NCBI RefSeq assembly: GCF_057098645.1 | Contig: NZ_CM169472.1 | Length of the DNA: 64,000 bases | Reading direction: 5' to 3' (one strand) | Part shown: positions 57,734 to 60,979 of the stretch, in pieces | Layout: the number at the start of each line of letters is the position of its first letter | Numbering within the stretch: position 1 is the first letter of the stretch | Translations under genes and position numbers: made by a program | Notes under the pieces: generated by a model | Told to the model about the DNA's origin: nothing | The model's database searches: none | What the model saw: the letters and a program-made list of their open reading frames with translations, nothing else

Positions 57734-58753
57734 TGATCCTACCCACGTAATATGGACACAGGCCTAAGCGAGGTTCTTGTTTTCAAATTGTTCCGGACTG
57801 AGGCCGCCACACCAACTGTGCCGCCGCCACCGATTGTAATCACATTCGATATAATTAAACACCGTTGCCCGCATTATTTCCCGGCTGATAAAGTGTTCTC
57901 CATGGATACATTCCACTTTCAGCGAATGAAAGAAGCTTTCCACGCAGGCATTATCGTAGCAGCAACCTTTTGCGCTCATACTTCCACGCAGATTATGCCG
58001 CTTCAGTTGCGCCTGATAATCTGCTGAACAGTACTGGCCTCCACGGTCCGTGTGAACGATAACGTTCCGGGGCCTCTTACGCCGCCACAGCGCCATCTGC
58101 AGGGCATCGCAGGCCAGTTGCGCCGTCATGCGTGGCGACATTGACCAGCCAATAACGGCACGTGACCACAGGTCAATGACCACTGCCAGATACAGCCAGC
58201 CTTCATCTGTACGTAAGTACGTGATGTCTCCTGCCCACTTCTGGTTCGGGCCACTGGCGTAAAAATCCTGCTCCAACAGATTTTCTGACACAGGCAGGCC
58301 GTGTGCGCGGTAGCTGACCGGGCTGAACTTCCGGGAGGCCTTTGCCCTCAGTCCCTGACGGCGCAGGCTTGCCGCCACGGTTTTTACGTTAAAGGGGTAA
58401 CCCTGAGCACGCAGTTCATCCGTCAGGCGTGGGGCACCGTAACGCTGTTTTGACCGGGTAAAAGCCGCGAGGACAACGCTGTCGCAGTGTTGGCGGAACT
58501 GCTGACGCGTGCTTATCCTTGTCCGCCGCTGACACCACGTATACCAGCCGCTGCGGGCCACCCGGAGCACGCGGCACATTGCTTTGATGCTGAACTCAGC
58601 CTGATGTTTTTCAATAAAGACATACTTCATTTCAGGCGCTTCGCGAAGTATGTCGCGGCCTTTTGGAGGATAGCCAGCTCTTCATCCCGTTCTGCCAGCT
58701 GGCGTTTGAGACGTGCAATCTCGGTAGACATCTCCAGTTCACGTTCAGAAGAC
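57734..58753 (-). mobile_element. IS3, partial (first ~238 bp replaced by IS629 insertion and deletion)
   Basis: Right inverted repeat TGATCCTACCCACGTAATATGG at 57734; intact insF; insE retained only from ...SSERELEMSTEIARLKRQL. Confidence 0.85.
57764..58630 (-). CDS. insF: IS3 transposase InsF (orfB)
   Basis: 288-aa [33 protein letters not shown]... matches IS3 InsF. Confidence 0.9.
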
Positions 58754-58795
58754 TGAACCGCCCCGGGTTTCCTGGAGAGTGTTTTATCTGTGAAC

Positions 58796-59686
58796 TCAGG
58801 CTGCCAGATCATCGTTTCCGATGGAAGCATAATAAGCTTTTTCTGCTTCTGCCGGGGGAGTATGGCCCAGCCTTTCCAGCAATCGTCGATTGTTATACCA
58901 GTCCACCCACGTGAGTGTGGCCAGTTCCACTTCTGCACGGTTTTTCCAGCTCTTACGGTGTATTACCTCCGCTTTGTAAAGACCATTGATGCTCTCCGCC
59001 ATCGCGTTGTCATACGAGTCACCTGTACTCCCTGTTGATGCCAGCAGTTTTGCTTCTTTTAGTCGCTCCGTATAGGCCAGTGATACATACTGAGAACCTT
59101 TATCACTGTGATGGACTGTGCCGGACGGCCGACGGGCCCACAACGCCTGCTCCAGTGCATCCAGCACGAATGTCGTTTCCATGGACGATGAGACCCGCCA
59201 CCCCACGATGTATCCGGCAAACACATCAATGATGAACGCCACATAGACGAAGCCCCGCCATGTGCTGACGTAAGTAAAATCAGCCACCCACAGCTGGTCA
59301 GGTCGTTCTGCCACGAACTGACGGTTTACGCGGTCGCCTGCGGCAACGGCTTTCCGGCTGATGGTCGTACGGACCTTTTTACCCCGGAGAACACCGGCAA
59401 GTCCCATAACTGCCATGAGACGTGCCACAGTGCATCTGGCCACTCTGATACCTTCCCGTAACAACTGACGCCAGACTTTACGCACACCGTATACCTGGTG
59501 ATTTTCATCGTATACGCGCTGTATCTCTTTCTTCAGCCAGTCATCGTGCTGCGCACGGGCACTGCGTTTATCCGGATGATGTCGCTGTTGCTGACAATGG
59601 TAATACGTTGACGGGGCAATATGCAGTTCGCTGCATAGCGGTCCGACCCCGTACTGCTCACGCAGCTTATCCAGCAGTGGCATCAT
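58796..59686 (-). CDS. IS629 transposase OrfB
   Basis: 296-aa DDE-transposase ORF. Confidence 0.85.
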
Positions 59687-60009
59687 TTTTTCCAGAGGCG
59701 GTCGAACTCCGCCTTCGCAAAATAAGCGGAAGCCTGGCGAAGGATATCGTTACTGCGGCGCAGTTCACGATTTTCACGCTCCAGCTCTTTCAGACGCTGA
59801 CGTTCAGCGGTGGTGAGCCCGCCATCACCGCCCCCGGTATCCCGCTCATGCTGGCGAACCCAGACACGCAGAGTCTCCGGCGTACAGCCAATCTTTGGAG
59901 CAATGGAACAAATTGTCGCCCATTGTGAGTCATATTCATCCTGACTTTCCAGAACCATACGAATCGCCCGCTGACGGACTTCGGGGGAAAAACGAGTATT
60001 TTTAGTCAT
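59683..60009 (-). CDS. IS629 OrfA
   Basis: 108-aa HTH/leucine-zipper ORF. Confidence 0.85.
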
Positions 60010-60063
60010 CCTGTTTACCTCTTTCTCAGGGAGTTTAGTCTCCAGGATTTCCGGGGCGGTTCA

Positions 60064-60979
60064 GACCGTCACGGGTCCACATGCCCGTGTTTTCACAGAT
60101 CCACCGCCCGTTGCTCTGGTCCAGTTCAGACTGATGGATCACGCAGCCATGATGTTCACAGAGGTAGAAAACACTTTCGGGGCTGTCCTTCTCCCATTTA
60201 AGCCCAAAAGGCGTGGACTCATCGCCAAATTTCAGATACTGCGCCTCCCCACAGTGCGGGCAGGGCACATAAAAACGCATAAAATGCGCCGACTCGTTAG
60301 CGGCTTTTTCGATCTGGCAGGTGCCTTTGATTTTAGGCGTCGAGCCGCGAATGGATTTTGGCCACACCGACCCCTCAATACGCTTATCCCCCAGCAGGGT
60401 TGGCGAGCCCTCTTTTTCGACATCCGGCTCGAACGAGGAAAGTTCGTCATAGCAGACCACGTCCACGGATTTTTCACGGTAGTTTTTGGCGGCAGCGCCG
60501 CCCAGGCACCAGAAACCGACGCCCGATGAAAAGCGTTTCAGCGTGAGAGTATTGTCACGATGTTTACGACCCAGCCATGGGGAAAGGTCTTTCAGGCATG
60601 GCACGTTCCGAATCGTCGCCTCCACGTGAGACTTCATAAAATCTTCAGCGGCAGAATCCGTGGGCTGAAAAAGCAGACTGTTTCGGGATTTATGCTCAAT
60701 AAAATACCCGACCACCCCCAGCAACATCTTTGTATAGCCAACACGGGCAGATTTAATCAGGTTAACCGTGCGAACCTGGTCGTTACCCATACAGTTCATA
60801 ATGGCGATCTGGAATGGCAGCGTTTTCCATTCGCCCTCACCGTATGAGGATTCTTTAGGCAGATAATAATTTTGATCAGCCCATTCAACTGCCGTCATTG
60901 GTACAACCCTGACCAGAGGCTGCAGCGCAACCGAAACGGCAGCCATCATATTATTCAGTTGTTGCTCTGATATATTCAT
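60064..60979 (-). pseudogene. Lambda-type terminase large subunit (gpA-like), N-terminal ~305 codons only; truncated at IS629
   Basis: MNISEQQLNNMMAAVSVALQPLVRVVPMTAVEWADQNYYLPKESSYGEGEWKTLPFQ... tracks lambda A from residue 1; ORF ends at the IS boundary. Confidence 0.8.

Follow-up and report, generated by a model that had tools for sequence, protein, structure and literature searches.

Ooka et al. reportedly described in 2009 small-scale structural polymorphisms and deletions that are associated with IS629 in the prophages of enterohaemorrhagic Escherichia coli (EHEC). Insertion sequences (ISs) of the IS3 family make deletions in the adjacent DNA which range from a few nt to >40 kb; IEE joins the ends with 4-6 nt of microhomology and not with 2 nt, and in some of the experimental deletion products the IS is kept intact (PMC9943667; bioRxiv 10.1101/2023.06.07.543989; PMC8860574). 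In O157 genomes, 26 of the 47 IS629 sites were found without matching repeats (Rump et al. 2011, PMC3271280). Here we analyse a locus of this kind. It lies in a stretch of 64,000 nt (contig NZ_CM169472.1 of RefSeq assembly GCF_057098645.1; "the window" denotes this whole stretch), in which a complete IS629-family element stands between a fragment of IS3 and the 5' part of a lambda-type terminase gene. Our interpretation, to which we assign a probability of roughly 0.9, is that a deletion of ~21 kb anchored at IS629, by whichever route, removed the 5' end of IS3 together with the morphogenesis genes of a lambdoid prophage. As an event this is of an ordinary and already well-known kind, namely IS-driven prophage decay.

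The evidence comes from the sequences on both sides of IS629. In intact IS3, the GAC that lies left of IS629 in the window is followed by GTCTGC (GTCTGCTGATT). In the intact terminase gene of a 99.9% identical relative, the GAC that lies right of IS629 is preceded by ...GAAAAACGTCA, which ends in CGTCA; the reference locus L006 reads ...aaaaacgtca/GACCGTCACGG across the terminase break (the slash marks the break point). IS629 therefore joins two pieces of DNA which are not adjacent in intact relatives. A first-pass annotation, made from the letters of the window, had arrived at this structure, and the reference alignments bear it out. The coordinates given for IS629 and for the breaks in IS3 and the terminase gene were exact. 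The IS3 break, which had been put at about position 238 within insE, lies after codon 58 and leaves canonical nt 239 onward. The terminase gene, said to be cut after about codon 305, retains 305 codons + 1 nt. Comparison of the two flanks of IS629 also confirmed that they are unrelated to each other. The features of the region are, with window coordinates and, where it applies, strand:

57428-57691 (-): 5' fragment of nleC, nearest gene to the left of the IS3 end (Pfam Peptidase_M85, positions 1-64 of 251)
57719-57733: remnant of the nleB2-nleC intergenic spacer, recognised from the empty site in the relative F2_81 (locus L001)
57734-58753 (-): IS3 fragment, canonical nt 239-1258, from alignment to K-12 IS3
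58751-58753: left GAC, native IS3 sequence, first half of the IS3 palindrome AGAC/GTCT
58754-60063 (-): complete IS629-family element of 1310 bp, from end-to-end alignment, inverted repeats, open reading frames (ORFs) and domains
58754-58778: right inverted repeat (IRR) of IS629
58796-59686 (-): orfB of IS629, 296 aa
59612-59728 (-): ALIL pseudoknot, the -1 frameshift stimulator of IS629 (Rfam RF01497)
59683-60009 (-): orfA of IS629, 108 aa
60039-60063: left inverted repeat (IRL) of IS629
60064-60066: right GAC, native terminase sequence
60064-60979 (-): 5' part of the lambda-type terminase large-subunit (gpA) gene, 99.9% identical to prophage terminases
60951-61460 (-): intact terminase small-subunit (Nu1) gene (Pfam Phage_Nu1; annotated homologue in L006)

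What once lay between the two breakpoints can be read from the homologous prophage of O103:H2 12009. On the coding strand of the terminase, the order in this prophage is Nu1, terminase, portal, protease, capsid, tail genes, J, lom, tail fibres, nleB2, nleC' and nleH. The breakpoints are 20,942 bp apart, and the interval comprises the 3' part of the terminase gene, portal, capsid, tail, J, lom, tail fibres and nleB2; no part of it is present in the window. The alignment to an intact related prophage that the first-pass annotation had suggested thus maps the deleted interval, and its claim that the 5' end of IS3 was lost together with the prophage DNA between the terminase gene and IS3 holds: ~20.9 kb are absent compared with O103:H2 12009 and F2_81. 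With the IS end exactly preserved and the flanks this far apart in the reference, the locus has both marks of an IS-anchored deletion. Boundaries, identities and missing interval are all observed directly in the alignments, and so is the microhomology described below.

In F2_81, the chromosomal surroundings (hprR ... yodB) and the nleF-nleH-nleC' block are as in the window, and nleB2 is kept. The left flank of F2_81 is 99.4% identical to the window up to 57733, and it also carries the Nu1-side DNA of the same prophage (98.3%). Since F2_81 holds both prophage halves at the same locus, the two sides of IS629 belong to one prophage. The morphogenesis region is deleted in F2_81 as well: a C-terminal tail-fibre remnant is joined directly to a Nu1 remnant (L001 8910-9344). 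This deletion is a different and independent one, and the prophage has decayed separately in the two lineages.

The deletion explains why the window prophage is defective, as the terminase nuclease domain and the portal, capsid and tail genes are missing. The prophage can neither package DNA nor build particles. It retains the lysis genes, Nu1 and the nleH/nleF cargo; the effector gene nleB2 was lost, nleF is kept and nleH is kept in a damaged state. The nleH gene (56330-57034, minus strand) looks damaged in that its 234-aa ORF covers positions 28-247 of the 304 positions of the NleH profile and scores 385 bits, below the cutoff of 450; the 99.9% identical gene of F2_81 is annotated as frameshifted.

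The IS3 fragment is identical to K-12 IS3A in 1020 of 1020 nt (57734-58753, aligned to K-12 nt 236-1255, i. e. nt 239-1258 of the canonical 1258-bp IS3). The annotated K-12 copy begins 3 nt inside the canonical end; the complete TGATCTTACCC left end is seen in the IS3 copy of O111 2015C-3101 (L003). The fragment keeps the right inverted repeat, the whole of insF (57764-58630) and 41 codons from the end of insE, and the NCBIfam IS3 transposase profile scores 339 bits on it. The left inverted repeat, the first 238 nt and insE codons 1-58 are gone. Of the parts that make up a complete IS3 (both inverted repeats, complete insE and insF), one repeat and much of insE are thus missing, so that this is a fragment and not a functional element. 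With its left inverted repeat and 238 nt lost, the fragment is unable to transpose.

On its other side, the IS3 insertion point lies at 57733/57734, 19 nt 3' of the nleB2 stop codon in relatives. F2_81 shows the empty site (between 7734 and 7735 of L001), and the window matches L001 up to 57733. Beyond the spacer, only the N-terminal part of nleC is left, followed by a tail-fibre-assembly remnant (57168-57718). This partial nleC arrangement is common to F2_81 and O103:H2 12009, and therefore the truncation of nleC is older than the IS3 and IS629 events. At the border of the two ISs, a 103-aa ORF (58627-58938, minus strand) starts in the 3' end of IS629, exits through the IRR and runs in frame into the remaining insE; this predicted ORF is located upstream of the IS3 frameshift site and insF.

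Lambda-type gpA contains an N-terminal ATPase domain and a C-terminal nuclease domain in one protein of ~640 aa. In the window, 916 nt of this gene remain, out of 642 codons in the intact form, and they are 99.9% identical to the prophage genes of O103:H2 12009 and O145:H28. The Pfam domain GpA_ATPase is kept over residues 48-293 whereas the nuclease part is gone. Ending at codon 305 of 642, the gene is a pseudogene. Read-through from the terminase sequence into the IRL of IS629 gives a product of 314 aa (ORF 60035-60979). The Nu1 gene next to it marks the right-hand limit of the damage.

IS629 itself is undamaged. The claim of a full-length copy with intact orfA and orfB proved right: the element measures 1310 bp and contains both frames, and a -1 slip at TGGAAAAAATG (an A6 run) yields an OrfAB protein of 404 aa with no internal stop. 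The terminal inverted repeats match in 13 of 13 nt and then in 9 of 9 nt. Length and imperfect terminal inverted repeats beginning TGAACCGCCCCGG are those of the IS629/IS1203 group (~1310 bp). The two frames overlap, and the frameshift element ALIL (RF01497) is present in full length (model positions 1-117 of 117; 120.2 bits at a gathering threshold of 50). The proteins contain the Pfam domains HTH_Tnp_1, HTH_21 and rve, i. e. both the HTH and the DDE (rve) part of the transposase, and the NCBIfam model transpos_IS3 scores 313 bits on the transposase (cutoff 160). The intact ends, reading frames and frameshift element are consistent with an element that is still active.

As to its name, ISfinder convention treats copies with ~95% identity or more as isoforms. 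Seven other copies align end to end with the window copy at 96-98.2% identity. Among all copies in 5,426 complete E. coli genomes, the best match over the full length had 98.2% identity, a value reached by the O157:H7 and O145:H28 copies; the others gave 96-97.4%. The label IS629 is therefore correct at the level of the family, with isoform-level identity as judged against genomic copies, but not as the canonical O157 sequence: with a best identity of only 98.2%, O157:H7 copies included, the window copy is an IS629/IS1203-type isoform. Compared with the seven copies it has only two private differences (positions 103 and 1068). The remaining differences are clustered, shared with other isoforms and switch between isoform types, i. 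e. the copy is a mosaic. No second copy of IS629 or IS3 was found in the 64-kb window.

The first-pass annotation had also stated that IS629 is nested in IS3 without a target duplication, and it regarded matching repeats at the borders as evidence against a deletion. The former does not hold, since IS629 is flanked by an identical 3-bp GAC on each side (58751-58753 and 60064-60066). The deletion nevertheless stands: each GAC is native to its own flank, the sequences beyond diverge completely, and the flanks are contiguous in no reference. Matching repeats were an ill-suited test of it. A matching 3-bp repeat around an IS3-family element is thus no proof of a simple insertion, since such a repeat may persist, or be imitated, at the joint of a deletion; therefore the continuity of the flanks needs to be checked against an intact reference.

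The GAC pair is either a retained duplication combined with microhomology or a coincidence. In the intact terminase gene the three bases that precede the right GAC are TCA, the same as the tip of IS629. The sequence TCAGAC, i. e. IS629 tip plus GAC, is hence shared with the intact terminase over 6 nt, with mismatches bounding it on both sides. The 20-kb reference interval contains TCAGAC only 6 times, and TCA was found upstream of the target in none of the three genuine simple insertions examined. A shorter identity exists in the other direction: in intact IS3 (GAAGAC) as in the intact terminase (TCAGAC), the junction follows AGAC. Both targets are also palindromic in GAC/GTC, reading AGAC/GTCT in IS3 and GTC-A-GAC-C-GTC in the terminase gene. 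In a rough tally, for which GTDB representatives were scanned for the IRR end of IS629 (only 18 matches, most of them at contig ends where a single flank was available), the triplets that flank IS629-family copies seemed biased to GAN (7 of 25 other copies, P ~7e-4); two of the 25 were GAC. Exact IRR ends also turned up on GTDB contigs labelled Gordonia, Clostridia, Lachnospiraceae, Collinsella and Acinetobacter (L015-L023, L032), most of them at contig ends; these are likely due to enterobacterial contamination of the bins.

A possible interpretation is the following. The lambdoid, effector-carrying prophage beside yodB would first have gained IS3 in the nleB2-nleC spacer. An IS629-type element would then have inserted into the insE part of IS3, oriented like IS3, with GAC as the duplicated target. 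A one-sided deletion could later have set out from the IRL, the left tip of IS629, and extended over ~21 kb. It would have taken away 238 nt at the 5' end of IS3, nleB2, the tail fibres, every head and tail gene and the portal gene, as well as the last 337 codons of the gene for the terminase large subunit. If the deletion was sealed at the terminase TCAGAC, which equals the IS629 tip (TCA) plus the duplicated GAC, IS629 would remain undamaged and would still seem to have a 3-bp repeat around it, which would explain why such a repeat survives. We infer that microhomology mediated the joining, be it end-joining or template switching, at an IS end processed by the transposase, a reaction of the kind attributed to IS3-family transposases with or without IEE; the order of events is inferred likewise. 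The 4-6 nt of microhomology at the junction would agree with IEE but are not specific to it. As a specific route, IS629 into IS3 followed by a one-sided microhomology-joined deletion from the IRL tip is the one we favour tentatively, at somewhat less than even odds.

Further copies of the junctions and of their parental states were sought. In the 5,426 complete E. coli genomes, the nleC-IS3, IS3-IS629 and IS629-terminase junctions were each absent. Apparent matches that covered a junction turned out to be IS629 copies at other places and were rejected, for example the one at terminase codon ~145 in Z1323HEC0399, which has the duplication GAG. The IS3-IS629 junction was also absent from 72,556 plasmids, and scans of both sides with degenerate patterns gave 0 matches each in JGI metagenomes. 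In contrast, two ENA metagenome contigs encode precisely the 314-aa product of the truncated terminase and IS629. Both are 99.8% identical to the window, with 6 differences in ~4,000 nt, and stop 54 nt inside the IS. It follows that the terminase-IS629 junction is real and is not confined to a single strain.

Several points weigh against the route favoured here. Its parental state, a simple insertion of IS629 in IS3 (...GAAGAC-IS629-GACGTCTGC...) with the prophage intact, was not found: the synthetic junction of the IRL with GAC and the 5' part of IS3 is absent from the 5,426 genomes, and an exact-protein look-up for the predicted InsE'-IS629 fusion protein found none on record. The TCAGAC microhomology was noticed after the fact. 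The bias of the flank triplets to GAN makes two independent GAC duplications less improbable than 1/64, and the terminase-IS629 junction on the two metagenome contigs fits an older simple insertion in the terminase gene equally well.

Such an insertion is part of two other explanations. According to the one, copies of IS629 in the same orientation were present in IS3 and in the terminase gene, each having duplicated GAC, and RecA-dependent recombination between them removed 21 kb and one IS copy; the second copy may have arisen when the first transposed locally. Deletions bounded by ISs classically form in this way, and the structure seen here is exactly what would result. The mosaic composition of the window copy shows that recombination between copies occurs in this IS family, and the enrichment of GAN including GAC among the flank triplets, the palindromic character of both target sites and the two independent metagenome contigs all fit well. 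However, GAC is needed for both duplications (roughly 2-8%), and the TCA before the terminase target, identical to the IS tip (1/64), is left unexplained and has no parallel in the simple insertions. Neither parental junction was found in the genomes or the JGI metagenomes; on the terminase side this would be ...CGTCAGAC-IS629-GACCGTC... in a complete gene, a state that is also the parent in the reverse order discussed next, and the synthetic junction of the terminase 3' part plus GAC with the IRR is absent from the same genomes. We consider recombination between two copies possible but, on balance, unlikely. In the reverse order, IS629 entered the terminase gene first, duplicating GAC, and a deletion from the IRR tip then ran via the morphogenesis genes and nleB2 into IS3, where it was sealed at AGAC. 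In addition to the AGAC found at both sites and the metagenome contigs, a second locus speaks for this. In O111 2015C-3101, IS1203 is nested in IS3 beside the espF gene of the locus of enterocyte effacement (L003 4131-6591) with ~104 bp of IS3 missing next to IS1203, and this is most simply an IRR-side deletion sealed at a 4-nt microhomology (TC/TG), 3 bp from the IS3 breakpoint of the window. Yet the reverse order accounts for 4 nt of identity and not for 6, the match between TCA and the IS tip becomes a coincidence, and the junction of the terminase 3' part with the IRR is missing from both the genomes and the JGI metagenomes, so that we regard it as distinctly improbable.

Under two other readings there was no deletion at all. 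The assembly could be a chimera in which two separate IS629 copies were collapsed and the nleC-IS3 flank was wrongly joined to the terminase flank. Both junctions do lie at repeats longer than short reads, and none of the collections searched lends independent support to the IS3-IS629 junction; but the window is one continuous 64-kb sequence across two IS elements and a P2-like prophage, F2_81 independently shows the locus without the morphogenesis genes, and two GAC duplications would still be required. The probability of such an artefact is very small. Or IS629 simply transposed into its present place, duplicating GAC, with nothing deleted, as the identical GAC on both sides might at first suggest. 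This is refuted: the left flank is IS3 (100%) and the right flank terminase (99.9%), each continues with its own sequence in intact references, and no known sequence has IS3 nt 239 adjoining terminase codon 305. Two further arrangements were rejected. An inversion between inverted copies of IS629, in place of a deletion, would put the 3' part and not the 5' part of the terminase gene beside IS629, and in a mobile IS3-IS629 composite the outer ends (IRR of IS3, IRL of IS629) differ in sequence.

If the deletion did start from the IRL tip, the junction may be a natural scar of a transposase-processed IS629 end, in which the IS was kept and 3 nt of the IS together with its 3-nt duplication provided a 6-nt microhomology with a site 21 kb away. 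We consider this rather doubtful. If true, deletions of this type would leave a false target-site duplication, and IS copies that are scored as simple insertions by their 3-bp repeats could hide deletions.

Elsewhere in the window, comparison with F2_81 reveals an insert of ~36 kb (11325-47693) between hchA and hprS. It is a P2-like prophage with genes for tail sheath, late control D and the terminase ATPase subunit, and it is 99.9% identical to prophages of TL012 and RM14721. In ompC, positions 9238-10186 have no megablast match to F2_81 while both sides are ~98-99% identical; this unmatched stretch probably represents the usual hypervariable ompC loops.

How does the locus compare with the described systems? 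With the IS629-associated deletions of EHEC (Rump et al. 2011, PMC3271280) it shares the lambdoid prophage, non-contiguous flanks, inactivated morphogenesis genes and an IS island that contains another IS, and it adds one more case of IS629-type elements eroding EHEC and enteropathogenic E. coli (EPEC) prophages. It differs in that its junction pair occurs in 0 of 5,426 complete E. coli genomes, in that the element is a 98.2% isoform and in that a 3-bp repeat survives. Like the deletions by IEE and IS3-family transposases (Kusumoto et al. 2011, as reported in PMC9943667 and bioRxiv 10.1101/2023.06.07.543989; Kanai et al. 2022, PMC8860574), it is anchored exactly at an inverted repeat, its size is within the range of a few nt to >40 kb, the microhomology is within 4-6 nt and, as in a minority of the experimental products, the IS has been kept. 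A difference is that IS629 is intact in the window while the majority of IEE products have lost the IS.

F2_81 has the prophage at the same site beside yodB with the same nleF-nleH-nleC' cargo, and it has likewise lost the morphogenesis genes; however, its joint contains neither IS3 nor IS629, and nleB2 is kept there but lost in the window. An IS629-type IRR that abuts a 5'-truncated IS3 in the same orientation is also found on an enterotoxigenic E. coli (ETEC) O25:H16 plasmid (L014 1631-4009), where IS3 is cut at K-12 nt 187 and no remainder of IS3 lies on the other side. The query for IRR-IS3 junctions was able to detect this orientation only, and a preference for it is unproven.

A further parallel is O111 2015C-3101. 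The two IS types and their relative orientation are as in the window, with adjacent loss of IS3 and an IRR-side IS3 junction only 3 bp away, in the palindrome AGAC/GTCT. Near-coincident breakpoints in two unrelated strains might mean that this palindrome is a preferred target or joining site of IS629. In O111 only ~104 bp are missing and the left end of IS3 is present, whereas the deletion in the window leaves IS3 and crosses 21 kb of prophage. The O111 locus appears to represent the same kind of event as in the window, on a small scale.

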